DNA from: a virus
Taxonomy: Duplodnaviria; Heunggongvirae; Uroviricota; Caudoviricetes
IMG/VR virus record: IMGVR_UViG_3300026549_000042
Location: 53,745-117,744 of that record
DNA: 64,000 nt
Direction: 5' to 3' (one strand)
Part shown: positions 5,419 through 49,970 of the stretch, in pieces
How the letters are laid out: the number at the start of each line of letters is the position of its first letter
How positions within the stretch are numbered: the stretch's first letter is position 1
Made by a program: the position numbers and the translations under genes
Notes under the pieces: generated by a model
The model's input: the letters and a program-made list of their open reading frames with translations, nothing else
What the model was told of the DNA's origin: nothing
Databases searched by the model: none

Positions 5419-5467
5419 TATGAATTTATGAATTATTATGAATTATTATGAATTATTATGAATTATG
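5419..5467. repeat. 10-bp tandem repeat (atgaattatt x about 4.5) spanning the start codon of the downstream gene
   Basis: tgaatttatgaattattatgaattattatgaattattatgaattatg read directly from the sequence. Confidence 0.8.
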
Positions 5468-6276
5468 TAAATAGTTTATCAATATATGGGTTTATGAATA
5501 AGAATTGTCAAAAGATTGATAATTCATTGTCATTTTGGAAAACCAAGTCACATTCACAATTAGTTTCATGTATAGAACCTCTTGATGTTATTCCTGAAAA
5601 TGTTCAAAAATTATCTTATATGTATTTAGACAAAGACCCAGGAATTAAAGGTACATATATGACAGAACAAATTACTTCAATAATTGACAATACATTTTTG
5701 AAAGATAATTTGACAAGAAAGAATCATAAAGAGATTTTTGAGACATACAGGAAATATCAATCAAGAATAACAGTTCATGAAGACTTAGACTATATACAAA
5801 GGCATTATGATGATATTATTGAAATGATTGAAGAATGGAGATATGCAGACTATGGTGGAATGAAATATATGTGGCAAGAAAGAGCTGGTGTTGATAAAGC
5901 ATTTTTTAAAAAATACTTAGAAGACATATTTTTACAACATCAAATATCAGTATATATATTTACTCATAATGAACTTGACAATAAGATAATAGGATATTCG
6001 GTTATGCCAAATATTTATTCTATCAACAATCATCATGTTCCTGAAGTATCATATATGCTTCGTAAATGTTTGTTAAAGAATGATAAAGTAAATTTGCGAA
6101 ATATAACTGAATATATTGATTGGATTACTTTCTGTAATACAATGAAAAACCTAAACATAGATATTTTGGCAGTAAATTGGGGATGTTCTGATAAAGGTGT
6201 AAAATGGTATAAAGAACATAAATGGCCATTGTTATATAAAGAAAATAAATACTTTGTAAACATTAAACTATCATGA
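5458..6276 (+). CDS. hypothetical protein
   Basis: 272-aa ORF; its start lies inside the tandem repeat and only the last ATG is in the long frame. Confidence 0.5.
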   Translation: MNYVNSLSIYGFMNKNCQKIDNSLSFWKTKSHSQLVSCIEPLDVIPENVQKLSYMYLDKDPGIKGTYMTEQITSIIDNTFLKDNLTRKNHKEIFETYRKYQSRITVHEDLDYIQRHYDDIIEMIEEWRYADYGGMKYMWQERAGVDKAFFKKYLEDIFLQHQISVYIFTHNELDNKIIGYSVMPNIYSINNHHVPEVSYMLRKCLLKNDKVNLRNITEYIDWITFCNTMKNLNIDILAVNWGCSDKGVKWYKEHKWPLLYKENKYFVNIKLS

Positions 6277-7463
6277 TACAATTAGAAATTCCATATACAT
6301 ATGAAAACTCTTCAAATCCTTGGTTGATGGATAAAATGGATGATAGCGATGTACTAGAATTTAACGGTCATAAATATACTGCTGAATACTTATGGACGTT
6401 AGATATTGAAGGTCGCAAGAAAGCCTTACAGAATGTGTTTCTCTATTATAGGGATCACGGTTTTCCATATCCTAATATATTTTATAAAGACATAGAAAAG
6501 GAATTTGAGAAGCTCATTCGGTATAATGTAAATAATGTAATAAATAAAGATGGATATATATCTAATTCAAGTAATATTTGTTTAAATTTATGTAAGTATT
6601 TTTGTAAAGATTATTTCTATAAAGCATCGGATGGTAATATGTCTGTTGAAGATGTATTTTATAATGATGAACTATTTATAAAAGTATTGAAAAACAGAAT
6701 GGGATGGAATACAACTAAAGAAGGTGGTATAGAACGCCCATATTTATTTCCTATATCTGATAAACAAATATTAAATGGAATACGTAATTCAGGATTAGGG
6801 TATGGTGTTTCAAACTTTAGACCAGTAGTTGCTAAATATATGTATGATCATGCTTTAGATTTAATCTTTGATTTATATGATTTTGATATAATTGATCCAT
6901 ATATATTTGACTATTCTGGTGGATGGGGTGCTAGAATGATGGGTGCTTTGTCTATATCAAATTGCCATTATGATTGTACAGATCCATTGACACATGAATG
7001 CTTGAAAGATATTGAAAAAACATTGTTGCACCATAATCAAGAAGTAAATGTATATGATAAATGTTCGGAAGACAACTTCTTTATGAATGAACAATTTAAG
7101 GAAAAATATAATATAATTGGTTCATGTCCTCCATATTATGATCAAGAAATCTATTCAAAAGATGATACACAAAGTACATCTTCAAATGACAATTATGTGG
7201 ATTGGCTTAATAACTATTGGAAAGATACTATAAAAAATTGTCATTATATGTTAGACAAAACAGGCATATTCATATTAGTCATTAAAGAAAAACATGTAAA
7301 ATATGAATTAATGAAAGATATGAATGACGTTATAGTAAAAGAAGGATTTGAATTGGTGGATGATAAACAATATAAATCAAATACTAATCATCTAAGCGGT
7401 AAAGCAAAAACAGGTAGAACATCTAAAAATAATGAACATATATTGTTTTATAAGAAGCTTTAG
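6273..7463 (+). CDS. hypothetical protein with methyltransferase-like motifs (possible gamma-class amino-methyltransferase fold)
   Basis: Motif I-like DPYIFDYSGGWGARMMGA and motif IV-like SCPPYY about 75 aa later; start overlaps the upstream stop (ATGA). Confidence 0.45.
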   Translation: MIQLEIPYTYENSSNPWLMDKMDDSDVLEFNGHKYTAEYLWTLDIEGRKKALQNVFLYYRDHGFPYPNIFYKDIEKEFEKLIRYNVNNVINKDGYISNSSNICLNLCKYFCKDYFYKASDGNMSVEDVFYNDELFIKVLKNRMGWNTTKEGGIERPYLFPISDKQILNGIRNSGLGYGVSNFRPVVAKYMYDHALDLIFDLYDFDIIDPYIFDYSGGWGARMMGALSISNCHYDCTDPLTHECLKDIEKTLLHHNQEVNVYDKCSEDNFFMNEQFKEKYNIIGSCPPYYDQEIYSKDDTQSTSSNDNYVDWLNNYWKDTIKNCHYMLDKTGIFILVIKEKHVKYELMKDMNDVIVKEGFELVDDKQYKSNTNHLSGKAKTGRTSKNNEHILFYKKL

Positions 7464-8764
7464 CTAATTATTTCATAAATCCATTCTTTTAATTCATTTA
7501 TATTCCAAAATTCTAAGTAGTTTAAATTATTTTGTTTAGCTATATTTCTCTTATTTACATCACGTATAGTCCAACAATTTATAGCATTATTGTAGAATTT
7601 GGTATTTTTACTTTTCCAATGTTCTAATATTAAATTATCTTCTTCTGTTCCTTCATAAGGTTTTCCGCCATGTGTCCAATGATAGTTACATTCAATATAT
7701 GTATCTAAACTTGGAATATAAAAGTCACAAGCAAAAGGATATACATTAGATTTATATTGATAGAGTGCATCAGGATATTTTTCTTTTAATAACTTATATG
7801 ATTCTTCTTCAGGTTTTGATGTATTAAATGTATGATTTTTGCGTTTTGTATCTAATACCTTTTGTATACATTCTTCTGAAAAACGTTTTTGTTTAGATAT
7901 TTCAGATTTTAAATAATTATCTACTCCATATTTTTTTATTAGTGTTTGTTTTCTTTTTTCATTAACTTCTGGTGTTTGAGCTGCTAATATACCCTTTTTA
8001 TGTATTTCTGGTATTTGATATGGATGAATATATCCTGTTCTTTCTTTTAATGTATTTTGTATTTTATTTTTTACTACATCTGAACATATAGGGGCTGGAC
8101 CACCATATTTTTTAATATTTGTTTGCTTTGTTTTTTCTTTAATATCTTCTCGTTGAGATGAATGTTCAACCCCATATTTATTTATATTATTTTGCTTAAC
8201 TAATGTTTTAAAATAATTTGTTTTAAACATTAAATCACCAAACTTTTCTATAATAGTATTGTTAGCCTTTTCTCTATTTGTAAAATTTTCATCTCCGTAT
8301 CTTTCTAATTTTGTTTGTTTTGTTTTTTCTTTAATATTATCATTTAATAATGGAGAAGTTGTTCCATATTTTTCTAAACATGTTTTCTTAACCTTTTCTT
8401 TAACTATACTTGAATTAACAGGATTTTCAACACCATATTTTTCTAAACATGTTTTCTTAACCTTTTCTTTAACATTCTTATCTAATGTTGAACATCTACA
8501 AGAACAATGAGATCTATATTTATTTTGTCCTAAATAAGTAACTTTATTACCACATACAGGACATACTGGACGAACTTCAATATTATAATATATTCTATAA
8601 ATTGTTTCAGTAAATGATTCAGAATCTTCAAATCTATTTATTAAATATTTTTCAATTTCTTCAGGATATTTATGTTTGTTTAATTTTGTAATATTATTTA
8701 TTTCAATTTTTTTATTTTGTTTTATAAATAATTTAATTATATCATTATCTGTTATATCTTTCAT
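7460..8764 (-). CDS. free-standing homing-endonuclease-like protein: Zn-ribbon, tandem K-x-LEKYG DNA-binding repeats, C-terminal nuclease-like domain
   Basis: CPVCGN...CSCRCS zinc ribbon; five or more repeats of KEKxKKTxLEKYG(V/T).NP; C-terminal CDFYIP...IECNYHWTHGG block; sits immediately downstream of nrdD. Confidence 0.55.
   Translation of the reverse strand: MKDITDNDIIKLFIKQNKKIEINNITKLNKHKYPEEIEKYLINRFEDSESFTETIYRIYYNIEVRPVCPVCGNKVTYLGQNKYRSHCSCRCSTLDKNVKEKVKKTCLEKYGVENPVNSSIVKEKVKKTCLEKYGTTSPLLNDNIKEKTKQTKLERYGDENFTNREKANNTIIEKFGDLMFKTNYFKTLVKQNNINKYGVEHSSQREDIKEKTKQTNIKKYGGPAPICSDVVKNKIQNTLKERTGYIHPYQIPEIHKKGILAAQTPEVNEKRKQTLIKKYGVDNYLKSEISKQKRFSEECIQKVLDTKRKNHTFNTSKPEEESYKLLKEKYPDALYQYKSNVYPFACDFYIPSLDTYIECNYHWTHGGKPYEGTEEDNLILEHWKSKNTKFYNNAINCWTIRDVNKRNIAKQNNLNYLEFWNINELKEWIYEIIS
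8375..8495. repeat. intragenic direct DNA repeats (about 45-60 bp units) encoding the LEKYG protein repeats
   Basis: ccatatttttctaaacatgttttcttaaccttttctttaac occurs twice almost identically. Confidence 0.7.
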
Positions 8765-8804
8765 TTATCTTTCCTATATTAAAATGTTTAATTAAAAATA
8801 ATAA

Positions 8805-8838
8805 AAAATTCCCGAATTACTTAAATAATTCGGGAACA
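8805..8838 (-). terminator. rho-independent terminator downstream of nrdD (minus strand)
   Basis: ttcccgaatta-cttaaa-taattcgggaa hairpin; an A-run on the plus strand gives a T-run for the minus transcript. Confidence 0.5.
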
Positions 8839-8863
8839 TATTTTAAATTATTTTTGAAATTTT

Positions 8864-10591
8864 TTAATTCTTAAAATGTTTTACTCGGTCATGGAATTCC
8901 TTCTTTTTACCAGCATTAAAGTGTTCTACTTGTGTACTTAAATATCCTGTGACTCTTCCAAGTTGGTCTATTTTTTCGCAACCACACTTTGGACATTTGT
9001 CTAAACTAAGATCCCATATACGTTCACCGCAATTATGACATTGTGAAATCTTTACATTTATTGCAAAATATGGTATATCTTTTTCCATAGCATAATCTAC
9101 TAAACTCTCAATTCCATCAATATTATTATATGGAACCTCACCAACTTCGGTATAAGTGATACACCCGGCGTTTGAATACGATGTGAGTTGGCTTTCTATA
9201 TCAATCTTTTCAAAAGGATCACATTCATGGTATACAGGTACATGCATTGAATTGGTAAAATATTTCTTATAATCCTTTTCTTTGTCTTCATTATAGAACC
9301 AAGTAACATTTTCTATATCAAATTCTGGAAATGCCTTTTGAAATTTTTTAAACGCTGTATGACAAAGATTTTCTGCTGGTGTATAATAAACTCCAAAATT
9401 AAGTTTATATTCCTTCTTAAATTCTGATGTCCTATCAAGCCAAAGTTGCTCAATTTGCTTTGCATATTTCATACCTTCTTCACAAGTATGGTCAAATCCA
9501 AACATAATAATTAATGCTTCAGAAAGTCCAAGTTGTCCAATTACAATAGTACCATGTTTAAGAGCTGAAATAATACCTTCATCTTTATGATATCCACTCA
9601 TAGTATGGTTTTCATACATAAATTTTGCTGATTTTACGGATTGTGAACAAATGTGATTGAATCGTTCGAGAAGCATATCCTTTGCCTCATGAAGTTTCTT
9701 GTCAAGTAGTTTTATGAATTCATTCCAAACTTGTTCAACTAATTCCGTAGATTCTCTGTTTAAATATTCTATCACATTGTCTTTTGCAACCTTTTTGACT
9801 GTCATTGCTGCTAAAGTAGGAAGTATGATAGTTACTGGGCAAATATTACCACGACCATCCTTTTGAATAGCTGAAAATACATCATCAATCTTATCAAATT
9901 CACCATCAATAGCATGTTGAACGTTATTCTTAAAATTATCTAATGCATTAATGTCTAATAGATTAACTGTACGACATCCCATAGTATTAAAAAATTCTAT
10001 TTGGCGTTCTGTTTTATCAACTTCTATATATGATTCTTTATTAATAAATAAACCAAGTTTTTCCATAAAAATATTAGGATTTTTACCAACTTGATTATAT
10101 AATTTATTATAAGTTTCAGGATCTAATGAATCAATAAATTCTTGTTTTTGCTTTCTATCTTGTTTAAGTGCATTAGTATTGTTACTCCAATCTGCATTTG
10201 CATAATTAGGATAAATACGCTTTGTGGTTGATTCTAATGCAAGACGTTTCAAGTCATAGTTAGGTGTTCCTGGTTTATCATTTACGCCTTTTTTATATTG
10301 AAATATACCACATGGGAAAATACTTGTTACACCATTTTCACCAAGACCCTCCATAGATACTTCTAAAAGAGCTTTTGTTACCATACGACCTGCTGGTAAA
10401 GTACAAGTACCGTAATTAATACTTGTGAAGGGTAGCTGATTCCCGCTCCTTGATTGTAATGTATTTAAATTGTGATACATCCCTTCAACGGCTTGATGAA
10501 TTTCCTTTTCTGTCATGTCCATTGCATACTTCCAAGCGTCTTTATATTGTTTATACTTAGAATCTGTAATTTCTATATCTGTTACTTTCAT
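8864..10591 (-). CDS. nrdD: anaerobic ribonucleoside-triphosphate reductase NrdD, C-terminal fragment (catalytic barrel, Zn ribbon and glycyl-radical motif)
   Basis: Matches T4/E. coli NrdD blocks: LNTLQSRSGNQLPFTSINYGTCT, VTSIFP, PNYDLKRLALESTTKRIYP, YYTPAENLCH, CHNCGER...CPKCGC, RVTGYLS; its own start MKVTDIEI. Confidence 0.9.
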   Translation of the reverse strand: MKVTDIEITDSKYKQYKDAWKYAMDMTEKEIHQAVEGMYHNLNTLQSRSGNQLPFTSINYGTCTLPAGRMVTKALLEVSMEGLGENGVTSIFPCGIFQYKKGVNDKPGTPNYDLKRLALESTTKRIYPNYANADWSNNTNALKQDRKQKQEFIDSLDPETYNKLYNQVGKNPNIFMEKLGLFINKESYIEVDKTERQIEFFNTMGCRTVNLLDINALDNFKNNVQHAIDGEFDKIDDVFSAIQKDGRGNICPVTIILPTLAAMTVKKVAKDNVIEYLNRESTELVEQVWNEFIKLLDKKLHEAKDMLLERFNHICSQSVKSAKFMYENHTMSGYHKDEGIISALKHGTIVIGQLGLSEALIIMFGFDHTCEEGMKYAKQIEQLWLDRTSEFKKEYKLNFGVYYTPAENLCHTAFKKFQKAFPEFDIENVTWFYNEDKEKDYKKYFTNSMHVPVYHECDPFEKIDIESQLTSYSNAGCITYTEVGEVPYNNIDGIESLVDYAMEKDIPYFAINVKISQCHNCGERIWDLSLDKCPKCGCEKIDQLGRVTGYLSTQVEHFNAGKKKEFHDRVKHFKN

Positions 10592-10609
10592 TTTATATAT
10601 TGAATTATA

Positions 10610-11611
10610 TTATATATTTTTTATAGATTTTAAAAATGTAAATGGTGAAACAAATCTTTCATTTAGTTCCTTAATAACTAATTTAGTATGTTGAATTAAC
10701 TTTTTTTCAAACTTGTTCCATCTATTGTTTATTTTCTTTATAATTTCATTGTTAGATATATTAGGATTAATGTTTTTGATTAAGTCTTCATAATCAATAT
10801 TATTCTTTTTAATTGTTTCTATTCTATTTTTTGTAATTTTTCTATATGAATTACAAAAATCATTTACATATTGTTTATCAGTATTTTCATTTAGATATTT
10901 AATATTGTTTTTAACTATAACAAATGTTTTATATAATGGATTCTTAAAAATTAAATTAGCTTGTTTATCTGATTGGTATATATCATAACTATCATTATTC
11001 AATATATTTTTAAATTGAGCAATATACGCATTTTTTTCAATATCAGATAAGCAATATATAATGTTTTTTACTAAAATATCCATATCTGTATCATCCTTTT
11101 CAATAGTAATTAATGATTGATAACCTGAATTCTTAATTGCTCTATATATTGTATTTTTATTGCCTTTATTATATGCGGAAATATTATCATATATATGTTC
11201 AAATTCATGTGCTAATAAATCTGTATAATTATCCTTTTCTTGATAAACAGTTTTTATATATAGATCAATTGTTATTATATTGAATTTTTTATCATAAGGA
11301 TTATAGTTTATATTAATTCCTGAATTATTTTCTTTGACAATATGATAATTTGCTTCATCTTTATTGTAATTCCCTATAAAAACATTTATAATTAACATAT
11401 TACAAAATATATTATAAGGACATTCATGCGAAAGTATTTCTATTATATTATTACCATTATTTAACTCTTTAATAATTTTATTTGATAAAAAATCACAAAT
11501 TTCATCTATTTTGGGGGGCGATCCCTTTCTTTCAAAAATCTCATATATAAATTCTTGTGTAAATTTATTATAGATATTTTGTTCATATATATATTCTGAA
11601 AACTTTTTCAT
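10610..11611 (-). CDS. hypothetical protein (contains HEFEH, an HExxH-type motif) in the insertion between nrdD fragments
   Basis: 333-aa N/I/K-rich ORF; TDLLAHEFEHIYDN. Confidence 0.45.
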   Translation of the reverse strand: MKKFSEYIYEQNIYNKFTQEFIYEIFERKGSPPKIDEICDFLSNKIIKELNNGNNIIEILSHECPYNIFCNMLIINVFIGNYNKDEANYHIVKENNSGININYNPYDKKFNIITIDLYIKTVYQEKDNYTDLLAHEFEHIYDNISAYNKGNKNTIYRAIKNSGYQSLITIEKDDTDMDILVKNIIYCLSDIEKNAYIAQFKNILNNDSYDIYQSDKQANLIFKNPLYKTFVIVKNNIKYLNENTDKQYVNDFCNSYRKITKNRIETIKKNNIDYEDLIKNINPNISNNEIIKKINNRWNKFEKKLIQHTKLVIKELNERFVSPFTFLKSIKNI

Positions 11612-11617
11612 ATTTAA

Positions 11618-12463
11618 CTAATAAATTATTGTTGATATTGGATATTCAAAATTATTATAGAAAATAATTCTTGACATCATAAATACTAATGTATGATATT
11701 TTGCCATCCAAATATTTTTTATATTATCAAAATCAATTTCTGTAGATGATAATAGTTGTTTTCTTTCATTTAATAATTTTCCATAATTAGTATTTTTATC
11801 TATACATTTAACATTACAAATTATTTTTATAAACTGATCAAATATTTTACATGTTTTAAAATTATCAATATTTATTAAATTTAAGTAATAATCAACATCT
11901 AAATTAGATTCATATATATTTATTTGGTTATCATATTTTTTATATGCACAATTATATAATGAATGAAATTGAAATTGTTCATTTTGATATTTTTCAAATT
12001 TTATATTATATTTATGTGTGACTGCTTCATATGAATTAATTAGTAAGTATTTTATTATATAATCTAAATCAATAAACTGGTAATCATTAGTCAAATTAAT
12101 ATAAAAATATAGATTATCAATTAGATGATCATCGGTTATTTTGTTATAAGTATAGTTTATTGAAAATTTTTCTGAATCAAAATTAACTATTAAGTACAAA
12201 TGATTAAAATATTGTTCATATATTTTACTATTAAAACAATCTTCTTTAGTTATTAAAATATTTTTTGAATATATATGTTTTATACATAGTTTACATAATT
12301 TTTCGCAATATTTATAGTTAAAATAATTGTAATAATCATAATAATAACTATAATAATTATCATTAATAGTATAAAAACATAATTTATATAAGTTAATAGA
12401 ATTATCTAAATTATTTATTAAATATTCATAATAACTTATTGATTCATCTGTCTTCTTCAACAT
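11618..12463 (-). CDS. hypothetical protein (N/Y-rich) in the insertion between nrdD fragments
   Basis: 281-aa ORF of extreme N/Y/I composition. Confidence 0.4.
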   Translation of the reverse strand: MLKKTDESISYYEYLINNLDNSINLYKLCFYTINDNYYSYYYDYYNYFNYKYCEKLCKLCIKHIYSKNILITKEDCFNSKIYEQYFNHLYLIVNFDSEKFSINYTYNKITDDHLIDNLYFYINLTNDYQFIDLDYIIKYLLINSYEAVTHKYNIKFEKYQNEQFQFHSLYNCAYKKYDNQINIYESNLDVDYYLNLINIDNFKTCKIFDQFIKIICNVKCIDKNTNYGKLLNERKQLLSSTEIDFDNIKNIWMAKYHTLVFMMSRIIFYNNFEYPISTIIY

Positions 12464-12662
12464 ATACTTTATTATCTTCTATTTTAACAATTTTGAATAC
12501 TGTTCCACCTGCATACCAACCATTACCGATCTTTGGATAGCGTTTCCATTTCTTTGCTCCTTCAGTAAAAGTTTTATCTAAAGATCCATTAACATATACT
12601 TCCCAGTCTTTACCGTTTTCTGGCTTGACTGCTTCATTTATATATTGTATTAATTTTTTCAT
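12444..12662 (-). CDS. small hypothetical protein immediately downstream of nrdD exon 2
   Basis: 72-aa ORF starting 2 nt after the exon-2 stop. Confidence 0.4.
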   Translation of the reverse strand: MKKLIQYINEAVKPENGKDWEVYVNGSLDKTFTEGAKKWKRYPKIGNGWYAGGTVFKIVKIEDNKVYVEEDR

Positions 12663-12663
12663 A

Positions 12664-12984
12664 TTAATCTTGTAATATTGTATTAACTATTGCATCTATT
12701 TCTTGATCAGTTTTATGTTCAACGTATTTTAGTCCATCCTTAAAATGCTTCATAAATGATTTACGAACATAAGGTACCATTGTCCAATCAATATGAGTAG
12801 CACCTACACCACCAAATTGTTGTAATGATTGTAATTGGAAAATAACAGCAACTAATTGCATGGCGGTATTTACTGAATTAGCTCCTCTAACATCTGTTTG
12901 TCTTGTCTTAAATCCTTCTGCAAGTAGCTTATCAAATGGTATGCTTAAACAGTTATGATCCCCCGTCATATAATGATCTAAATC
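12664..12984 (-). CDS. nrdD: NrdD exon 2 (N-terminal fragment, second part)
   Basis: DLDHYMTGDHNCLSIPFD...GANSVNTAMQLVAVIFQLQSLQQFGGVGATHIDWTMVPYVRKSF aligns to T4 NrdD HDIDYSPALPFTNC...GVATAIMAQITAQVASHQYGG; exon begins at the Asp codon after the intron-terminal G. Confidence 0.8.
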   Translation of the reverse strand, partial: DLDHYMTGDHNCLSIPFDKLLAEGFKTRQTDVRGANSVNTAMQLVAVIFQLQSLQQFGGVGATHIDWTMVPYVRKSFMKHFKDGLKYVEHKTDQEIDAIVNTILQD

Positions 12985-14105
12985 CATTTCCTCTTTATAT
13001 TTCTATATAGAACTGACTATATCATCTTCCATAAAGGAAGTTGCGCACTTCGAATAGTGTTAATCTCTATTCTACATCCTTACACTCATCAGGATTAGTC
13101 GATACACCTTTAAATTTATCCTTTTCAATAATTATTTTTAAGTTTTCAAATTTTTTATGCTTACTAAATTTAGGTTTCCACGTATTATTAATTATTTGAT
13201 AAGAAATAGTTCTTGATAATCCTAAATTATTTCTAATCCAAGAAAACATATCTTTTCTATATCTTGTTTCATATAGAATAGTATCATCTAATTTACAAAT
13301 AAAATTATCAGGACATTGAGCATTTCTATTATTTAAAATTGCTTGAAGAGATAATTTTCTTCCTTTTAATTTTAATCCTATTTGTTTATGCATTTCTTTG
13401 GCTTTTTCTGTTTTGTTAAAATTTTGTATTGCATTTCTAAGATTTTCAAGATGTTCTTGTGAAAAATGTCTTGAAACTCCTTTATTTGCTTTACTTATTC
13501 TTTCAAGTTGTTCTTTAGTATATACATGATGCCACATTGGATTTTTTTCACCTGTTCTTGTTTTTGCAAATTCACTTAATTTTTTTCTCATATTTTCACC
13601 ATAGTTTCCATGGTTTCCACCTCTACCACCTTCATGAAAATTTGCTTTACATTCGCCTCTTTCCCAATACTCATGTATTAATTTTCTTTCTAAATCCCAA
13701 GATTCTTGCTCATAAAGATTTTCATACAATTTTTTAACATCAACATTATTTCCCTCTTTTGCAATTATTGACTTAAAATAATTATTTCTATGAAATTCAA
13801 CATCTTTCCATCTATCATAACATCCTTTCCCTATATAAAATATCTCATTAGTATCTATATAGTACCAAGCATAAATATAATATTTGTTTTCTGTTGTATT
13901 CATATTATTTAATAAATTTATTTGGCTCGGTATTTCCAGCTATCCAAATTAATGGACCTTAGGTTCTCTTAGTCAGTGTATTCGTGAGTAGATCATTCTC
14001 CTTATTTAACTGATACCGATAGCAGAAGTTTAACTTCCACACCCCTTTAACATAGGTTCACGCAATTATTCAAAACATATTACTATATTAGGCCACAATT
14101 TTCTT
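12985..14105 (-). mobile_element. group I intron in nrdD carrying a GIY-YIG homing endonuclease gene
   Basis: Interrupts NrdD between ..MIYIH and DLDHY..; upstream exon ends in U and the intron ends in G; GC-richer flanks (12988-13066, 13904-14105) suggest a structured RNA; T4 nrdD has an intron in the same gene. Confidence 0.7.
13067..13903 (-). CDS. GIY-YIG homing endonuclease (intron-encoded) with NUMOD-like repeats
   Basis: YYIYAWYYIDTNEIFYIGKG...R...E; repeats GEKNPMWHHVYTKEQLERISKANKG and FSQEHLENLRNA. Confidence 0.85.
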   Translation of the reverse strand: MNTTENKYYIYAWYYIDTNEIFYIGKGCYDRWKDVEFHRNNYFKSIIAKEGNNVDVKKLYENLYEQESWDLERKLIHEYWERGECKANFHEGGRGGNHGNYGENMRKKLSEFAKTRTGEKNPMWHHVYTKEQLERISKANKGVSRHFSQEHLENLRNAIQNFNKTEKAKEMHKQIGLKLKGRKLSLQAILNNRNAQCPDNFICKLDDTILYETRYRKDMFSWIRNNLGLSRTISYQIINNTWKPKFSKHKKFENLKIIIEKDKFKGVSTNPDECKDVE

Positions 14106-14600
14106 ATGGATATATATCATATTTTCTTCGTGATTCTTTCGTGCCATCTTTGACATTGTCTTTAATGCAAGATTTTTAGCAACAGCACCTGCAGTTTCTC
14201 CTAAACGACCTCCAAAAGATGCTTCATCAAGATTTGCATTTTGATTTTGTACATTTTTTGCAGAAAGCTTATCATTAATTTGTTTCATTAAGTCAGATTT
14301 TTGTTCACGAATTTCTTCACGTTTACGTCTATAATTAATGAATGATTCAACAACTTCATATTTGTTTCTCTTAATAAGTTCCTTTTGAATTACATCTTGA
14401 ATTTCTTCAATAGGTGTTCCTTCACCATTGTTTTTTATAATAACCTTTTCAACTGCATCTTTAACTTGTTCTAAAAACTTCTCAGGAACTTCTTGATTGA
14501 CTGATGTAAAGGCTTTTGTAATAGCATCAGCAACTTTTATAAATGAATATTCCTGAGGAGTACCATCTCTTTTGATTACTTTCATATAAATAGAATTCAT
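14106..14600 (-). CDS. nrdD: NrdD exon 1 (ATP-cone plus start of catalytic domain)
   Basis: ATP-cone MKVIKRDGTPQEYSFIKVADAITKAF; ends ..SKMARKNHEENMIYIH, aligning to T4 ..IMKAHESGIIHVH; the ORF runs 5 codons into the intron before a stop. Confidence 0.8.
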
Positions 14601-14792
14601 TATATTTTTATTATAAAATAGTAAAATTTTTGCATTATATAAAATAAAAATGAAGGAATATTAGACAGTCTAAGCTGAATTTTATTCCTTCAAATTTATA
14701 AATATTTTGCCTTAGACTATATATATTAAAAATATTAAAATATATCTAAAGTCATAAAATTAAATTATATTCAAATTATATAAATATAACTT

Positions 14793-15794
14793 TTATTTTT
14801 TCCAGTAACTATAAATATTTTTTTCTACCTCGTAATTGTCAAATATAAATGACTTCCTATCTTGTATGTTATTTGCCCAGTTCCACATATTTTTCAGGCC
14901 TTCTTCAAATGATATGTCTTCTTTATAGTCTAATATATCTATAGATTTTTTACCATCAGGATATGCAAAAAATACTTCATGACGTTTTTCAAGATATACT
15001 TTATCATGATATCCTGCAATATTCATTAATATATCGGCAGCTTCATTTATCGTATATTCTTTAAGACCTCCAAGATTAATAATTTGCTTACTTGCTTTAT
15101 CATATACCGCAGCATTCCATAAACAAGGCAAACAGTTATCAATATATGAAAATGCTCTTACTTGATTACCATCTCCATATATTGAAATTGGCAAGTTATG
15201 ATTTATTTGATTAATCCATATACCAAGTACATTACGATACTTATCCCATATATTTTGATTTTCTCCGTATACATTATGGGGACGAATAATACACCAGTCT
15301 AATCCATGCTGTATACCTGCAATTCTAATGTCTTGCTCACAACTATATTTTGCTACTCCATAAGGATCTATAGGTGCAGGGGTATCATTCTCTGTAAACA
15401 TAGAATTTGACATATTTCCATGACCGTATACTGACATTGATGATGTAAATATTAGTCGTCTTACATTAAAGTTTATACATGCATTTACTACATTAGCTGT
15501 TGCTACCATATTATTCATATAATTAAACCTACGAATAAACGGTGATAATCCTTCAGCAGCATACGCAGCAAGATGATATACATATTCTATATCATATAAT
15601 TCAAAAATATCTTCAATATCATCTGTTGCTAAATCTCTATCATATAATGTACATCCTTTAGGCAAATTGTCTAAATAACCGCCAAGTAAATTGTCTATAC
15701 CTATAACATTATATTCTGGATGTGTGTTTATTATATATTCTGCTAATCTACTACCAATAAAACCAGCAGCTCCTGTTATTAAAATCGATTTCAT
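14793..15794 (-). CDS. NAD-dependent sugar-nucleotide epimerase/dehydratase (GalE-like SDR)
   Basis: Rossmann motif ITGAAGFIGSRLAEY, catalytic YGVAKY; adjacent to glf. Confidence 0.8.
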   Translation of the reverse strand: MKSILITGAAGFIGSRLAEYIINTHPEYNVIGIDNLLGGYLDNLPKGCTLYDRDLATDDIEDIFELYDIEYVYHLAAYAAEGLSPFIRRFNYMNNMVATANVVNACINFNVRRLIFTSSMSVYGHGNMSNSMFTENDTPAPIDPYGVAKYSCEQDIRIAGIQHGLDWCIIRPHNVYGENQNIWDKYRNVLGIWINQINHNLPISIYGDGNQVRAFSYIDNCLPCLWNAAVYDKASKQIINLGGLKEYTINEAADILMNIAGYHDKVYLEKRHEVFFAYPDGKKSIDILDYKEDISFEEGLKNMWNWANNIQDRKSFIFDNYEVEKNIYSYWKK

Positions 15795-16963
15795 TAATTA
15801 AGTGTCTCTATATATTTATCATTAAATACTATATTCTTATAATCTTCCATTGCCTCCTTAATACAATCATCCATGTCTAAATATTTATACTTTCCGATTC
15901 TTCCACCAGGTATGATATTTGGATATGTCTTTTGTAATAATTCGATATATTTAGTATATAAAGTATTGTTTTCTTCGTCATTAATAGAATAATATCGTTC
16001 CTTTTCTGGTGTCCAATCATCAGGAATCTCAAGCGTCTTAATAGTATAATTTCCTATAAAAGATTCAACAGATTCAGGAGTAAACCAAATATGATCAATT
16101 ATTCGTGTTCCTTGTTGGTTGTCTATTAAATTTGTAACAGCAATACCTTCAGATGATTTATAATCAAACTTATATAAATTATGTTCGAATCTTAAACTAC
16201 GATATTGTAAAACTCCTAATTCATAGTCAAGTAATTCATCTATAGCTCCACAATATATTACTTTACTATATTTACTTAATTCTTCTTTATGATCAAGTAT
16301 ATTATAATTTAGTTTTACATCAATGCCAGACAATATGTTAGATATCATTTTTGTATATCCGCCTATAGGAATACCTTGAAATATGTCATCAAAATAGTCA
16401 TTATTATAATTCATTCGTATAGGTATTCTATTTATGATAGATGCCGGCAATTCTTTAGGATCTTTATTCCATTGTTTTTGAGTATATTTCTTTATGATCT
16501 TTTCATATAATGTCTTACCAACCAATGATAATGCCTGTTCTTCAAGATTAGTAGAATTTTCAATATTTAACTTTTCACTTTCAATAGTTTCTAATATCTT
16601 TTTACTATCTATTGTTCCAAACACATCATAAAATGTATTCTTATTAAATGGTAAATGATATATCTTATTGGCAGAATCTATAGCAATTACAGAATGTCTA
16701 TAGTTATTGAATTCTGCATAATTACTTACAAAATCTATTACAGTTTTGTCAGATGTATGAAATATATGTGCACCGAATTCATGAACAGTCATACATTTTC
16801 CATCTTCAGCATAGAATGGATTATCATGGCACATTCCACCAACATATTCATGCTTATCAACTACTAAACATTTATGATTATTGTTTGTCAATAACCTTGC
16901 TATTGTTGCTCCATATAATCCTGCACCAACAATCAAATATTCATAATTATTATCTTCATTCAT
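15794..16963 (-). CDS. glf: UDP-galactopyranose mutase
   Basis: FAD motif LIVGAGLYGA, FGAHIFHT, EEQALSLVGKTLYEKIIKKYTQKQW; collinear with E. coli Glf. Confidence 0.9.
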   Translation of the reverse strand: MNEDNNYEYLIVGAGLYGATIARLLTNNNHKCLVVDKHEYVGGMCHDNPFYAEDGKCMTVHEFGAHIFHTSDKTVIDFVSNYAEFNNYRHSVIAIDSANKIYHLPFNKNTFYDVFGTIDSKKILETIESEKLNIENSTNLEEQALSLVGKTLYEKIIKKYTQKQWNKDPKELPASIINRIPIRMNYNNDYFDDIFQGIPIGGYTKMISNILSGIDVKLNYNILDHKEELSKYSKVIYCGAIDELLDYELGVLQYRSLRFEHNLYKFDYKSSEGIAVTNLIDNQQGTRIIDHIWFTPESVESFIGNYTIKTLEIPDDWTPEKERYYSINDEENNTLYTKYIELLQKTYPNIIPGGRIGKYKYLDMDDCIKEAMEDYKNIVFNDKYIETLN

Positions 16964-18021
16964 TAGAGTTGTCGTTTCTTTAGGATTTCAATAAACTGAT
17001 CTTCAGTAAAAGTACAACCAGCTGCACCTTTATGACCTCCACCATTATATTTTTCTTTTAAAAATTCACCACAATGGAAATAGTCATCATTATTGATATT
17101 GTACATAGACAATACCCAATTTCCATTAGATTGATGTTTAAATACAAGACCATTTCTAATGTCTTTATTTTGTAAACATTTGAACATTAATGAATTTGAT
17201 TGCCCTTCATGAAATATTGCACATGCCTTTCTATAAAATGGCCTTCCTCTGTCGGCATCATCAACCACTATATTCCAAGAACAATCTCCATTATATTTAA
17301 TAATATTTTCTATAGTTATATCTTCATAATCATTAAGTTCTTGCCCGCGTTTATACATGTTACCAATTAGTATATTCTCAAATTGAATATCTAATCCATT
17401 ATGATATATTCCAATAATATATTGAACCGTTTCTAATACTTTATCAATATTTAAGTTAAATTCAACAGTAGTACCTTTATTTATATGTCTTACCCATTCA
17501 TGAGTATATCCTTCATGTTCATATGACCAACTGTCCCATGCAGAAAGTATTCTAAAAAACTCAGGAAATTCTCTGTGTAATTCAGGAATAGGTTTATTTG
17601 CATCTATTTGATTATACTTTTCATTAAATGGATCATAAAAATATTCATAAGCACATAATATAGCCGATTTTGAAGTATTTCGAACACCTTCACAATCAAA
17701 TCCATTCTTTACTTTTAATGATTCATTTATAATTGGTGCATGATGATCAAACCATATCATATTATGAGCAAATTCATTATAAAGATCATGCATATAATCT
17801 GCAGTAAAAGATATATCAGTCAATATAATAGTATTATATCTTTCATGAAGTTTCTTTGGCGTATTGTTTTTCTGAAAATAATTCATTAAATTATAATCGG
17901 CACCAATAAGATTAATTTCATCTCTTGCTATATCATGTGTTATAAGATAATTAAGTATTATTGCTGCAGAAAATACACCGTCATTATCTTCTTTATGATA
18001 TATTAATAAATATTTTTTCAT
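16963..18021 (-). CDS. DHH-family phosphoesterase (NrnA/RecJ-like)
   Basis: Motif I YHKEDNDGVFSAAI, motif III FDHHAPI. Confidence 0.65.
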   Translation of the reverse strand: MKKYLLIYHKEDNDGVFSAAIILNYLITHDIARDEINLIGADYNLMNYFQKNNTPKKLHERYNTIILTDISFTADYMHDLYNEFAHNMIWFDHHAPIINESLKVKNGFDCEGVRNTSKSAILCAYEYFYDPFNEKYNQIDANKPIPELHREFPEFFRILSAWDSWSYEHEGYTHEWVRHINKGTTVEFNLNIDKVLETVQYIIGIYHNGLDIQFENILIGNMYKRGQELNDYEDITIENIIKYNGDCSWNIVVDDADRGRPFYRKACAIFHEGQSNSLMFKCLQNKDIRNGLVFKHQSNGNWVLSMYNINNDDYFHCGEFLKEKYNGGGHKGAAGCTFTEDQFIEILKKRQL

Positions 18022-18117
18022 ACTATTTCTATTTTAATATTATAAGTTTAATTTAAAATTGATTTATTGATAGAAATATTTTAATATTTTTATATATAAT
18101 ATATAGAGGGTTTTTTC

Positions 18118-19797
18118 ATGAATTTAGTTGTATCATTAAATAATATTGATGAATTAAAAGATATTAATATTGATGAAAATATTAAAGAAAAATTTGATAA
18201 TATTTTCTATGTTTTCAATGATAGTCAAATAGAAAAACTTAAGTTATTATATCCTAATGATATTATAATTGTAAATAAGAATAATAAATTATTTAATAAT
18301 AAAGTTAATATAAGTATTCTTATTCCTGTATATAATTGTGAAAAGTATATTAAAACATGTTTAGATAGTTGTCTAAAACAAGATTTTGAAGGAACTTATG
18401 AAATTATTATTGTTGATGACGGGAGTACTGATAATACAGTAAATATTATTAAATCATATAATGACAATAAAATTAAATTATATAAATTAGAGCATAATGG
18501 TATAAGTAATGCTTTAAATTTTGGATTGTCTAAATGTGAAGGTGAATATATTTGTAGAATGGATGGAGATGATGAAATGTATGTTAATAGATTGACAATA
18601 CAATATAAATATATGTTAAGACATCCAGATACTGATATATTAAGTAATGGATTGCTGTGTTTTGATGAAAGCTTAACATATATAAAAGATAATATCTCTA
18701 TATGTAATTTTGATAAATCCAATCTATTATTATTAGATATTGTCAATAATTGTGATATACACCATCCTTGTACATTTATAAAAAACAATATTAATGGATT
18801 TTATTATGACAATACTTATGATGGATTTGAAGATTATGAGTTATGGTTTAGATTGATAAAATATGGATATAAGATATCTTCTTGGCATATACCTGTAATT
18901 AAATATAGATATAGAGAAAATTCAAATAGTCATAATATAAATATTGTAAATGATGTAAATAAATTAAAAACAAATATATTAGAAGAATCTAAAAAAATAG
19001 TTGGTATTTATTATATTGCTACAGGTATATATAAAAACAATTTTAAAAAATTTTTAGAATCAATACATAATTTCTTACCAATATATAATAAAACAATTAT
19101 ATTATTAACTGATGGCTTGGAAGAATATAAAAACTATAGTAAAGACAATATAAATATTGAACATCATTATATTGAAGATCATCCATGGCCAATAGTTGCA
19201 TTATTTCGTTTTCATTATATATTAAAATATAAAACAAATTACGATTATATATTTTTTATAAATTCAAATGCAGTAATTAAAGAAAATAAATCAATAAATT
19301 GGTTTGATCAAAACAAAATAAATGTTACCAAGCATTTTACATATCGCTCTGGCGTTTTAACTACATATGAAATGTTATTACCAAGTGATGATAACCCAAA
19401 TTCAACTTCATATATAGGAAATATTGAATATACATATTGTCAAAGTGGTTTTTTTGGTGGTCCAAATAATTTAATTTATGAAATGTGTGAAGATATTGTA
19501 AATATAATAGATATTGACTTAAAAAATAATATTATTGCAAAATGGCATGATGAAACATATTTTAATAAATGGTTATATAGTAAAAAATATGATAATAGAT
19601 TAATTAATATTACTGATGTATTTTTTACTAAAAATTTTTCACAAGAGAAAAAATCTAATTTTATTTATCTTGAATATAAAAATGAAGATGATAAAGATTT
19701 AAATAAAAAGAAAAAGTTAGAAAATAAATTAAATTATGGACAATATAAAAATGAACATAATTATGATTTAGACAAAAATACATTAAATAAAATTTAA
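18118..19797 (+). CDS. bifunctional glycosyltransferase: N-terminal GT2 domain fused to a C-terminal GT6 (ABO-like alpha-1,3-Gal/GalNAc-transferase) domain
   Basis: GT2: ISILIPVYNCEKYI...IIIVDDGSTDNT...MDGDDE; GT6: HPWPIVALFRFHYI, FINSNA (NxN in place of DxD), QSGFFGGP, WHDETYFNKW (compare human GTA/GTB HDESHLNKY). Confidence 0.75.
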   Translation: MNLVVSLNNIDELKDINIDENIKEKFDNIFYVFNDSQIEKLKLLYPNDIIIVNKNNKLFNNKVNISILIPVYNCEKYIKTCLDSCLKQDFEGTYEIIIVDDGSTDNTVNIIKSYNDNKIKLYKLEHNGISNALNFGLSKCEGEYICRMDGDDEMYVNRLTIQYKYMLRHPDTDILSNGLLCFDESLTYIKDNISICNFDKSNLLLLDIVNNCDIHHPCTFIKNNINGFYYDNTYDGFEDYELWFRLIKYGYKISSWHIPVIKYRYRENSNSHNINIVNDVNKLKTNILEESKKIVGIYYIATGIYKNNFKKFLESIHNFLPIYNKTIILLTDGLEEYKNYSKDNINIEHHYIEDHPWPIVALFRFHYILKYKTNYDYIFFINSNAVIKENKSINWFDQNKINVTKHFTYRSGVLTTYEMLLPSDDNPNSTSYIGNIEYTYCQSGFFGGPNNLIYEMCEDIVNIIDIDLKNNIIAKWHDETYFNKWLYSKKYDNRLINITDVFFTKNFSQEKKSNFIYLEYKNEDDKDLNKKKKLENKLNYGQYKNEHNYDLDKNTLNKI

Positions 19798-26530: not shown

Positions 26531-27025
26531 ATGCTTAGAATTTTAAATATTACAGCACCAGACATTAATAATGGTAATGGAATTAGAGTAACACTGTGGG
26601 TAGCAGGTTGCAAGCATTATTGTAAAGGCTGTCATAACCAATGGACATGGAAATATGAGCAAGGAAAAGTATATCGTTATGAACAAGAAAATATAAAAAA
26701 GGAACTTGCTAATTGGTTAAATCGTGATTATGTTGAAGGATTGACATTATCAGGAGGTGATCCGTTGTGTCAAGATAATGATGGACTATGTGAATTGCTT
26801 GATTTGATCAAATGGTTTAGAAAAGAATATCCAACAAAGAACATTTGGTTATATACTGGATATACAAAAGAAGAAATTGACAATTCTAATAACTATATAA
26901 TGAAAGAAGTTGTGAACAGTATTGATGTGTTAGTTGATGGTCCGTATATTGAAAGTCTAAGAGATATATCACATACTCCATTTAGAGGCAGCACAAATCA
27001 AAGATTAATATATATTAAGAAATAG
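26531..27025 (+). CDS. nrdG: anaerobic ribonucleotide reductase activating protein (radical SAM)
   Basis: DINNGNGIRVTLWVAGCKHYCKGCHNQWTW, LTLSGGDPL, IWLYTGYT, VLVDGPY, FRGSTNQ; collinear with E. coli NrdG. Confidence 0.9.
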   Translation: MLRILNITAPDINNGNGIRVTLWVAGCKHYCKGCHNQWTWKYEQGKVYRYEQENIKKELANWLNRDYVEGLTLSGGDPLCQDNDGLCELLDLIKWFRKEYPTKNIWLYTGYTKEEIDNSNNYIMKEVVNSIDVLVDGPYIESLRDISHTPFRGSTNQRLIYIKK

Positions 27026-48359: not shown

Positions 48360-49970
48360 ATGGCAAATGATAAGTTAAATAGTACTAAATCAATAAATAG
48401 AATAAGAAATAAGTGGAAACGACCTTGGAATATTCAAAAATTTGATGATCTTTATAATAGAGATGAGCGTTTTTTCAGTATACTTATAAAGGGAGCAATT
48501 TCATATCTTAACAATCATATTAAAATGTATGATACAAAAATCAATCATTTCATATTGAATACTGGATCATCATATATGTATGTTGAAAATAATGGATATG
48601 AATTTTCTTGGAATGAGACAAGTGGTGAAGACTATATTTATATGCAAATGCCAAGATGTATTGTTGAGATAGGATCTATATCTATTCCACAAGAAGAACT
48701 GTCACAATCATTTGCTCGTGGAAACTATGAAAGACGAGATGGTGAAGTAATAAAAGAATATAATGCAGAAATTAAACGAATTCCAATAGAGGTTGAATTG
48801 TCATTACATTATGTATTTGGTACATTTAATGAATCTATAGTTGTATTACAGGAACTTATTGACAAAATGATATTTCAACAATATTTCAACATAACATATC
48901 TTGGAAATATAATTCGTTGTTCTATTGAGTTTCCAACAAATACACAAATACAATTAAATAAGATTGATTTTTCGTCAACAGATGTTACTCAAAAAAGTAT
49001 AGACATTACGGTTACTATATGTTCAAACTATCCTCTTATTAATGAACATTCAGAAATACCTGGAACACAAATCATATCTAAATTTGGAGGATTGATAAGT
49101 GATAATTCCGAAAAACATATTGTCATAACTATAGACGGTGTAGAAATATATAGACATACAATATTTATAGATTGTAGAAAGTTTGATTTGAATAATGACG
49201 GTAAAATAGATGAAAATGAAATAGAAATCATAAGAGAATTTATTGAACGTTTTGATACTGATAATGACGGTGAAATTACCACACATGATATACAAGTAAT
49301 AGAAGAAGATTTCATTAATAATGTATATAATATAAAATATGATGTATTGAATATTGGAACTGTCAATAATCAAAATCTTGTAATAATAAAACATCTATTT
49401 GATATTTTAGATATTAATAAAGATGAAGTAGTAAACAAATATGAGATTACAACAATACTTAAGCATATAGAACTAATATCAAAATATGATTTCAATAATG
49501 ATTTGAAAATTGATTATGATGATATAGTTGCAATATTAAACTACTTAATTAGTCATGAAAATCTTACATATGATAGTTTATGGGAAAAATTAGTAAGTTT
49601 TTGTGATATGAATATATTTGTTATATCTGAAGAACTTTATAATTATATTTTAGAAATAGTAAAGACAAACATAACCGATGCTAAAATTGCTATTGAATAT
49701 TACATTAATCAAAACAATATAGAAATTGATAATGACATATTAGTTGAATTATATAAGATAATAGATGAAATGATTGAATTCAGTATATATGACATTAATA
49801 ATACTGGAGTCATTTCAAAAGATATTGCAGATACTATAATGAATGAAATATCTGAATATTCTAACAAAGAAATTAGCTATTATGTATCTTCAAACATAAT
49901 AATTCATAGTAAAGACCATACATTATCTGACAGTTCAATAACAGATACTGAAACAATGAAAAACTTCTAG
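48360..49970 (+). CDS. hypothetical protein with paired dockerin/EF-hand-like Ca-binding loops
   Basis: DLNNDGKIDENEIEII.EFI and DTDNDGEITTHDIQVI (DxNxDGxIxxxE, about 22-aa spacing); a second degenerate pair DINKDEVVNKYEI and DFNNDLKIDYDDIV. Confidence 0.55.
   Translation: MANDKLNSTKSINRIRNKWKRPWNIQKFDDLYNRDERFFSILIKGAISYLNNHIKMYDTKINHFILNTGSSYMYVENNGYEFSWNETSGEDYIYMQMPRCIVEIGSISIPQEELSQSFARGNYERRDGEVIKEYNAEIKRIPIEVELSLHYVFGTFNESIVVLQELIDKMIFQQYFNITYLGNIIRCSIEFPTNTQIQLNKIDFSSTDVTQKSIDITVTICSNYPLINEHSEIPGTQIISKFGGLISDNSEKHIVITIDGVEIYRHTIFIDCRKFDLNNDGKIDENEIEIIREFIERFDTDNDGEITTHDIQVIEEDFINNVYNIKYDVLNIGTVNNQNLVIIKHLFDILDINKDEVVNKYEITTILKHIELISKYDFNNDLKIDYDDIVAILNYLISHENLTYDSLWEKLVSFCDMNIFVISEELYNYILEIVKTNITDAKIAIEYYINQNNIEIDNDILVELYKIIDEMIEFSIYDINNTGVISKDIADTIMNEISEYSNKEISYYVSSNIIIHSKDHTLSDSSITDTETMKNF

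Follow-up and report, generated by a model that had tools for sequence, protein, structure and literature searches.

We analysed the nrdD gene in a 64,000-nucleotide (nt) stretch of viral DNA, positions 53,745 to 117,744 of IMG/VR record IMGVR_UViG_3300026549_000042 and referred to here as the window, which belongs to a tailed phage, since a T4-type portal protein and a terminase are encoded elsewhere in it. The gene codes for a class III glycyl-radical ribonucleotide reductase (RNR) and is present in three pieces, all identified as NrdD by Pfam (PF13597, PF03477 and PF01228) and by matches to the PDB entries 8P23, 1H78 and 9D3X. Exons 1 and 2 are separated by a group I intron, and a 2-kilobase (kb) insert with three open reading frames (ORFs) lies between exon 2 and the remainder of the gene (Table 1). 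A preliminary description, made from the letters and their ORFs, had placed a stop after exon 2 at 12664, three ORFs behind it (one with an HEFEH motif), a resumption of NrdD homology in a new ORF with its own Met, and the whole in a class III RNR that also has an intron. Its coordinates and description were correct: the stop is TAA (12664-12666), the three ORFs encode 72, 281 and 333 amino acids (aa) on the same strand, the new ORF of 575 aa starts with the ATG at 10591, and NrdD domains and a group I intron (12985-14105) occur together. Below, L-numbers are related contigs or loci compared with the window and P-numbers are proteins from a large protein database.

Exon 1 lies in an ORF (14088-14600) that matched the Pfam ATP-cone (E=6e-19) and positions 2-48 of the NRDD profile. 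Its alignment to P. copri NrdD begins at residue 4, and its putative end was placed from the IYIHDLD of intact relatives. The ORF containing exon 2 (12664-12987, minus strand, 107 aa, C-terminal end ..KTDQEIDAIVNTILQD) matched NRDD profile positions 47-139, and exon 2 aligns to residues 15-154 of T4 NrdD. Joined, the two exons give an N-fragment of 271 aa that carries DHNCLSIPF and ends ..VEHKTDQEIDAIVNTILQD at the stop codon. The C-fragment matched NRDD (E=6e-101) and Gly_radical in Pfam, contains the loop 2 region, the TMGCRT Cys loop, the Zn-ribbon cysteines and the glycyl-radical motif RVTGYL, and aligns to residues 282-401 and 469-739 of P. copri NrdD and 148-604 of T4 NrdD.

The insert has a guanine plus cytosine (G+C) content of 13-21%, compared to 29-36% for the nrdD pieces. 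Only 1, 6 and 18 of its 2072 nt (25 nt in total) are non-coding, and the ORFs otherwise abut or overlap. The independent Logan assembly L002 has the same arrangement with 100% identity across the region, which excludes an assembly artefact. The long ORFs are not due to chance either, as about 1 codon in 10 is a stop at approximately 18% G+C and 281 stop-free codons then have a probability near 1e-13 (our own arithmetic); homologues of all three ORFs are known elsewhere.

Table 1. Features of the nrdD locus in the window and gene content of the corresponding gap in related loci
Feature	Position	Strand	Description
nrdD exon 1	14106..14600	(-)	ATP-cone; NxN flap (NVQNQNANLDE); C-end ..NMIYIH
Group I intron	12985..14105	(-)	Within HxHD-equivalent motif (between IYIH and DLD); separate from the 2-kb insert
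Intron ORF, GIY-YIG-like	13067-13903	(-)	278 aa; homologues at same site in L041, L029, L030
nrdD exon 2 plus TAA	12664..12984	(-)	Coding 12667-12984; stop 12664-12666
Gap gene 1, 72 aa	12444..12662	(-)	ATG 1 nt past N-fragment stop (TAA-T-ATG)
Gap gene 2, 281 aa, N/Y/I-rich	11618..12463	(-)	Function not assigned by Pfam/PHROG
Gap gene 3, 333 aa, HExxH (HEFEH)	10610..11611	(-)	Contains LLAHEFEHIYDN; C-end ..KSIKNI, then stop
Conserved A/T box (AAAAAATATATAATATAA...)	10592..10620	(-)	10-27 nt upstream of C-fragment ATG
nrdD C-fragment	8864..10591	(-)	575 aa; own ATG at 10591; opens MKVTDIEITDSKYK
Free-standing homing endonuclease gene, DUF7487 / PHROG 3339 type	7460..8764	(-)	Immediately downstream of nrdD
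nrdG homologue (activating enzyme)	26531..27025	(+)	tblastn with Thomasclavelia phage TR-TP1 NrdG, E=1.7e-22, residues 1-171
L004/L069 gap			HExxH 326 aa, 77 aa, 143 aa
L060 gap			51 aa, 78 aa, 438-aa endonuclease
L067 gap			51, 154, 281, 261 aa
L066/L068 gap			121-125-aa Pol-beta-type nucleotidyltransferase, 278 aa
L074/L075 gap			Single 414-aa fusion protein
L078-L080 gap			198 nt with only a 60-aa hydrophobic ORF
L081 gap			275 nt, no ORF

The break and its counterparts in related phages

When both fragments were aligned to NrdD structures, the break was found in a variable surface linker. The N-fragment reaches residue 250 of P. copri NrdD and the C-fragment starts at 282, the linker is nearly absent in T4 NrdD and in 9D3X, and its length at the break ranges from about 0 to 60 aa among NrdDs; as the structure alignments differ in the linker at this point, the cut falls in a linker that varies in length. 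When the large protein database was searched, around 16 intact NrdDs of the same short-linker subfamily with up to 85% identity were obtained, as well as 11 C-fragment clusters that start at exactly this residue (70-92% identity). Relatives that lack the insertion have an intact nrdD at 79-85% identity, and those represented by P0060-P0065 (835-845 aa) are colinear with the two fragments over the break.

At the break site the intact allele (P0061 / L072) reads ..GATATATTAGATACA directly followed by ACACAAGTAACAGAT.., and at the protein level ..EIENIVNDIL-DT-TQ-VTDIEITDQKYKQY.. of P0061 corresponds to ..EIDAIVNTIL-QD-stop and then M-K-VTDIEITDSKYKQY.. in the window. The four spacer residues of P0061 thus stay four, indicating that nothing was duplicated or lost, and the wider alignment showed the same colinearity. 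One stop codon and one Met are the only novelties compared to the intact linker. The tail of the N-fragment (..TDQEIDAIVNTILQD) and the head of the C-fragment (MKVTDIEITD) match this linker residue for residue, and no new terminal tails made by the insertion were found. The preliminary description had pointed to a short similar motif shared by the two fragment ends, and from this to a junction duplication or an overlap designed for complementation. Neither was upheld, as the similarity at the DNA level was not above chance (p=0.40 compared to shuffles) and the ends correspond to the native linker cut in two, without any gain or loss of residues. The best local protein alignment of the ends was a different segment, with p=0.002 in the window and p=0.5 in the closest relative.

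The same break codon is used in at least eight related contigs with differing gap contents. N-fragments end ..IL-x-x-TAA and C-fragments open M-[KN]-[VI]-x-[DN]-IEITD in every split case, and the tail of the N-fragment and the position of its stop are kept in L004, L060, L067, L078 and L081. Among the gap contents of eight lineages only about 25 nt at the 3' end, next to the C-fragment, are common to all. Split and intact alleles were interleaved in a neighbour-joining tree, which fits homing or a reversion via recombination; we take the tree only as a sign of presence/absence polymorphism. A megablast search of positions 8000-15000 against phage genomes gave nothing useful.

The genes in the gap of the window also occur in other places. 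The 72-aa protein is 82% identical to a gap ORF of L004 and has a homologue in the gap of L060, and its gene was found far from nrdD in L061-L063, being separated by about 100 kb from an intact nrdD on the contig to which L005 and L063 belong, and located beside an HExxH gene in L061, with no nrdD within the 10 kb fetched. A 72-aa gene near nrdG in L070 was considered as a further homologue and rejected, as it is not homologous. The 281-aa protein is 34% identical (E=6e-17) to an ORF of L054 that precedes an HExxH homologue, so that the 281/333-aa pair is adjacent and in the same order there, and the next gene in L054 is not nrdD. No Pfam or PHROG match was obtained for the 72-aa and 281-aa proteins. 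The 333-aa protein belongs to an uncharacterised HExxH family of approximately 300-350 aa (57 representative proteins at E<=1e-3) with H135, E136, H139, Y164, Y186 and E192 as invariant residues. Weak SprT-like and M76 matches were seen for a few members only, the family had no convincing Pfam match, a profile search against PDB sequences was empty, and the AlphaFold2 model of the 333-aa protein (predicted local distance difference test score 83.7) had no fold match in the PDB.

In L074 (3728-4972) the HExxH domain is fused to the 72-aa domain in one protein of 414 aa. The corresponding genes are separate neighbours in L004 and separate and non-adjacent in the window. The fusion suggests that the HExxH and 72-aa proteins act together. 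The three ORFs had been called unrelated, which is correct with respect to nrdD and does not apply to this pair, and their occurrence elsewhere points to ordinary phage accessory genes.

Splicing and the origin of the insert

The intron that separates exons 1 and 2 served as a control for the insert. It is positioned 320 nt upstream of the split, at an IYIHDLD site that corresponds in the alignment to the HxHD triphosphate-binding motif of P. copri NrdD (motif according to PMC11226230). Its non-coding flanks are 74-78% identical to the flanks at the same site in L041 and L029, and the proteins encoded by the exons of these loci share only about 55% identity. It holds an R-like element, ACACTGACTAAGAG, and an S element, GATATAGTC, at 13015-13023, the latter with a single occurrence in the window. 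The ORF of the intron (13067-13903) gave no Pfam match, and the GIY-YIG assignment was made by eye (YIYAWYY..FYIGKG). The ATG that precedes exon 2 is ACG in relatives, and is therefore formed by the terminal G of the intron and is not a start codon. For the same reason we rejected the possibility that this first interruption is another split, for which the ATG and a GAGG-like motif upstream had been considered.

Rfam did not detect any intron family, either at the gathering threshold in the whole window or at E<=10 in 8500-14900, and the genuine group I intron was missed as well. Nothing was found in five related loci with same-site introns and ORF-less interruptions either. As the neighbouring genuine intron was missed, the silence of Rfam on the 2-kb insert weighs little, and the S element was used as the positive control in its place. 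In the fetched loci this element occurs in exact form 20-85 nt before NrdD resumes at about 19 other interruptions, the intron of the window included. It is absent from the 2-kb insert, even when one mismatch is allowed, and from every other insert at this site.

These observations bear on the alternative, raised in the preliminary description, that the insert is a second ORF-rich self-splicing intron of group I or II, the removal of which restores a continuous nrdD. Group I introns invade this gene family at no fewer than eight other sites, an intron missed by the insensitive Rfam search is conceivable, and the junction ..CAA GAT / TAA ... ATG / AAA GTA.. is in frame with a U before the 5' site and a G at the 3' end. 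However, an insert with 25 non-coding nt and 13-21% G+C lacks the non-coding ribozyme core that phage RNR group I introns keep, the S element is missing from all inserts at this site, and the tail of the N-fragment with its stop and the head of the C-fragment with its ATG are conserved as coding sequence. Moreover, the gaps of eight lineages share no common ribozyme core, as they have only the approximately 25 nt at the 3' end in common, and neither a reverse transcriptase signature (Pfam) nor a group II match (Rfam) was found for the insert. We therefore regard a second intron as very unlikely.

Post-translational joining of the chains, through a split intein or some other form of protein ligation, is even less probable and in our view close to negligible. 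Fractured genes with split inteins and endonuclease genes are present in metagenomes, RNR genes included (PMC2677866), but no Hint/intein Pfam match was found in either fragment, and none in the insert. Past the last conserved block the N-fragment has a tail of 19 aa and the C-fragment a head of 21 aa, both of which are colinear with the native linker and so leave no space for intein halves, and the initiator Met is followed by K or N and not by a nucleophile.

The related loci also point to the nrdD family as an insertion hot spot (L001, L016, L026-L053), with four interruptions in some genes. Besides 271/272, recurrent interruption sites are 165/166, 223/224, 316/317, ~323, 364/365, ~445/477, 623/624 and 676/677 (reference positions). 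The ~445/477 site adjoins the TMGCRT Cys loop and is used in many loci, including that of Thomasclavelia phage TR-TP1. The NrdD matches of L026 at 6309-6896 and 7728-9338 overlap in the query (residues 6-203 and 176-820), with the first only 38% identical, which could be another kind of split or a partial duplication. Two in-frame TAG codons were seen in L009 (7281 and 7944) and one TGA in L012 (7890, at the invariant Trp of DWTMVPY), in an otherwise intact nrdD, suggesting stop-codon reassignment or errors. Stop-codon reassignment was rejected for the window, where the N-fragment stops at TAA and the gap ORFs end with TGA, TAG and TAA.

Evidence for the origin of the insert was obtained from the gaps of the relatives. 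The gap of L060 contains an intact gene of 438 aa that matched PHROG 3339 'homing endonuclease' (E=2e-44) and Pfam DUF7487, and a decayed copy of this gene (45% identical, E=9e-101) is located at the same site in L016, the NrdD of which is only about 55% identical to that of the window. The gap of L081 is a decayed 3' end of the endonuclease gene (residues 367-436, E=7e-7), and that of L067 retains its last 16 codons. The final codons of the L060 gene (..KFIKNI-TAA, AAAATTTATTAAAAATATATAA) persist as the A/T box before the C-fragment ATG in the window, L004, L067, L074, L078 and L081, so that this box is probably the last trace of the 3' end of the endonuclease gene; in the window and L078 another upstream ORF runs into the box and ends ..KNI and a stop. 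The gene directly downstream of nrdD in the window is of the same type (Pfam DUF7487 E=8e-32; PHROG 3339 E=1e-23), and its product is 28-29% identical to the gap endonucleases of L016 and L060.

The simplest history would be that a free-standing endonuclease gene was inserted once, with subsequent spread or persistence, and that it then decayed and was replaced by other genes, an order of events that we infer from the alleles. A DUF7487-type homing endonuclease gene would have entered the variable surface linker between two codons of a four-residue turn, and in related phages the split would have become more widespread, or have been maintained, as a presence/absence polymorphism. The lineage of the window would then have lost the endonuclease gene from the gap except for the approximately 25 nt of its 3' end, and the gap would now house three ordinary accessory genes.

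A probable two-chain reductase and its precedents

The ratio of nonsynonymous to synonymous substitution rates (dN/dS) between the window and L004 was 0.09 for exon 1, 0.15 for exon 2 and 0.10 for the C-fragment, with dS around 1. All pairs among four split genomes had values of 0.02-0.15, including the first 46 codons of the C-fragment. Every nrdD piece is under strong purifying selection. The Cys of DHNCLSIPF aligns to T4 C79 and P. copri Cys171, the Gly of RVTGYL to T4 position 580 and the RITGYL motif of P. copri, and CHNC...CPKC to the Zn site. TMGCRT is presumably the radical Cys loop, judged from the motif; a short-segment PDB search for the Cys loop gave no alignment. In P. copri NrdD, Cys171 on the first strand is needed for the radical mechanism, and Cys416 and Gly711 are further landmarks (PMC11226230). 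By these landmarks Cys171 falls in the region of the N-fragment, and Cys416 and Gly711 in that of the C-fragment. As the catalytic residues are divided between the two fragments, the active site must come from both chains.

Taken together, we consider it likely that nrdD in the window is a functional, unspliced gene in pieces that derives from an endonuclease insertion, with the gap now used as a slot for accessory genes. The intron would be spliced out, and exons 1 and 2 would give the N-fragment that stops at the TAA at 12664 and supplies the ATP-cone, the NxN flap, the HxHD-equivalent motif, the first-strand Cys and the specificity-site region. The C-fragment would be translated independently from the ATG at 10591 and would supply the loop 2 region, the radical Cys loop, the Zn ribbon and the glycyl-radical domain. 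Both chains would then assemble non-covalently into an NrdD with a shared active site, which NrdG (26531-27025) would activate. Separate translation, non-covalent assembly and enzyme activity are inferred. The nrdG of the window is located approximately 12 kb from nrdD on the opposite strand; in most related loci it is directly downstream of nrdD.

The fragments could instead be decaying remnants of a pseudogene in a phage that uses the RNR of its host, as genes that carry interruptions are often dead, nrdG is not linked to nrdD in the window, and fragmented nrdD genes of unknown status have been reported, for example in phage phiAS4 (PMC3653736). This is contradicted by dN/dS values of 0.02-0.15 at saturating synonymous divergence for all pieces in the four split genomes and by the lack of internal stops or frameshifts. 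NCLS, TMGCRT, RVTGYL and the CxxC...CxxC pairs are all intact, the start and stop positions are kept in at least eight lineages, and an intact nrdG is retained. Decay is thus highly improbable. The preliminary description had named ordinary conserved ORFs together with pseudogene fragments as a finding that would speak against a split gene; the ORFs do occur outside nrdD elsewhere, as described above, whereas purifying selection argues against pseudogenes.

It is also unlikely, if somewhat less so, that the products no longer form one enzyme, with the C-fragment acting alone as a minimal NrdD or the N-fragment as a separate ATP-cone regulator or in another role. T4 NrdD lacks the ATP-cone (its alignment starts from query residue 114), so that this domain is dispensable, and the fragments may have their own expression signals, such as the A/T box. 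Nevertheless, the alignments also place the Cys that corresponds to T4 C79 and P. copri Cys171 in the N-fragment, together with the NxN flap and the HxHD-equivalent motif, and the constraint on this chain is as strong as that on the C-fragment.

Several points weigh against a functional gene in pieces. A splice from ..ILQD to KVTDIEI.. would stay in frame and obey the trivial group I rules, and as such a junction is formally possible, the sequence by itself does not absolutely exclude splicing; the failure of Rfam to recognise the neighbouring intron adds to this. The neighbour-joining tree had no support values, and its outgroup placement was odd, possibly due to recombination. Furthermore, Pfam and PHROG found no endonuclease among the three gap ORFs of the window, so that the account of the origin rests on the relatives, and the two-chain assembly of a glycyl-radical enzyme is a prediction here.

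A broader reading, to which we would give slightly less than an even chance, combines a two-chain glycyl-radical enzyme, made up of a regulatory/first-strand module and a radical barrel, with a scar that has become a stable gene-swapping slot. The slot would be bounded by the fixed TAA-N-ATG junction on one side and by the conserved A/T promoter-like box on the other, and the swapped genes would most often include the HExxH and 72-aa proteins. That this HExxH/72-aa module assists in the assembly or regulation of the split enzyme seems improbable to us, as it is also found away from nrdD.

A similar A/T box precedes the C-fragment ATG in L004, L060, L067, L074, L078 and L081, whatever the upstream gene, and may be a candidate promoter or initiation region. 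The sequence TATATAATATA, which the A/T box resembles, recurs 13-30 nt upstream of several starts, at 10606, 18093, 42070, 46609 and 57600; for the portal gene and three others the distance is about 25 nt. It seems to resemble the T4 late-promoter consensus, TATAAATA. Shine-Dalgarno motifs are almost absent before approximately 60 ORF starts of the window, and the AT-rich context of the C-fragment start is thus normal for this phage. The first gap ORF begins 1 nt past the N-fragment stop in the window, L004 and L060, a spacing that would be compatible with coupled translation.

Other features of the window were also observed. Two ORFs are unusual in a phage, one of 536 aa with EF-hand calcium-binding motifs (48360-49970, plus strand) and one of 666 aa with an SPFH/Band 7 domain (31005-33005, plus strand). 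Beside nrdD, a sugar-modification cluster (14793-19797) contains an epimerase/dehydratase, the UDP-galactopyranose mutase GLF and a family 2 glycosyltransferase, labels that are based on Pfam matches on the identical Logan contig. At 5428-5457 (plus strand) ATGAATTATT is repeated three times in tandem, upstream of and into the start of the ORF at 5458-6276.

To our knowledge, a non-spliced split of an RNR gene by a homing endonuclease has been dissected in one case only, the class Ia NrdA of Aeromonas phage Aeh1. The nrdA-a / mobE / nrdA-b arrangement of this phage is a split gene (Friedrich et al. 2007 PNAS, as cited in PMC2988022), and its NrdA has full activity in spite of the split (Crona et al. 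2011, PMC3045599). The preliminary description had noted the likeness to this system, and the fixed break codon, the lack of a ribozyme or intein, the selection on all pieces and the endonuclease genes in the gaps of relatives agree with it. Both are RNR catalytic-subunit genes of T4-like phages that a free-standing homing endonuclease gene has divided, in the window apparently, into two ORFs. The insert has a lower G+C than the host gene, and active-site residues are found on both polypeptides; RNA and protein splicing are absent in Aeh1 and probably absent in the window. They differ in that the window has a class III glycyl-radical NrdD, cut in a variable surface linker and with native linker halves as fragment ends, whereas the break of Aeh1 is between two barrel strands and its ends are new tails created by the insertion. 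Furthermore, the gap of Aeh1 holds mobE, whereas that of the window holds three accessory genes, has lost the endonuclease gene and varies in content among relatives. A further difference is that, in the system of the window, alleles with and without the split occur side by side at 79-92% identity. The activity of Aeh1 NrdA was measured, whereas that of the enzyme of the window is predicted from its genes.

Other endonuclease-associated split genes are T4 gene 39/60 with mobA and gene 43 of Aeromonas phage 25 with seg, and gene 43 of phage 44RR is split by an untranslated intercistronic sequence (PMC2988022). As in the window, an essential enzyme is made in two translated pieces, with an endonuclease gene at the site in some phages, and the short ORF-less spacer of 44RR can be compared to the gaps of L081 (275 nt) and L078 (198 nt). 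Unlike here, these are other enzymes, and their sites were not described as a slot with many alternative contents. Phage nrdD is often fragmented, mostly by introns (PMC3653736). The group I introns of T4 nrdD/sunY and nrdB and of TR-TP1 nrdD (HNH, L001), which carry homing endonuclease genes, are found in the same gene family and are mobile via endonucleases. Such RNR introns sit in catalytic motifs, which the 2-kb insert does not. As described in the relevant passages of PMC12880540, nrdD is fragmented in 95/104 genomes of the Jug jumbo gut phages by introns and endonuclease genes, and a junction between fragments of 230 aa and 91 aa had no evidence of mRNA splicing; those passages give no analysis of break point, origin or evolution for this junction, and the fragment sizes differ from the 271 and 575 aa of the window.

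The kind of event is thus already known. What appears to be new, judged from the alleles compared here, is its occurrence in a glycyl-radical RNR, the clean cut in a native linker with no new tails, a split that has outlived the endonuclease gene, and the many alternative gap contents at one codon. If our reading is correct, the principle of the endonuclease-split RNR extends to a class III glycyl-radical enzyme, in which the radical would have to move between the buried Gly and the Cys loop of one chain, and the other chain would provide the second catalytic Cys and the flap that covers the substrate. The alleles at this codon form a natural series of intact, endonuclease-filled, endonuclease-decayed and cargo-filled genes, in which both the life cycle of an insertion of this kind and the reuse of its scar as a slot for accessory genes can be tested directly. 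For annotation, our reading would mean that apparently truncated nrdD ORFs of approximately 270 and 575 aa in contigs of gut-type phages should be paired and not be regarded as pseudogenes.

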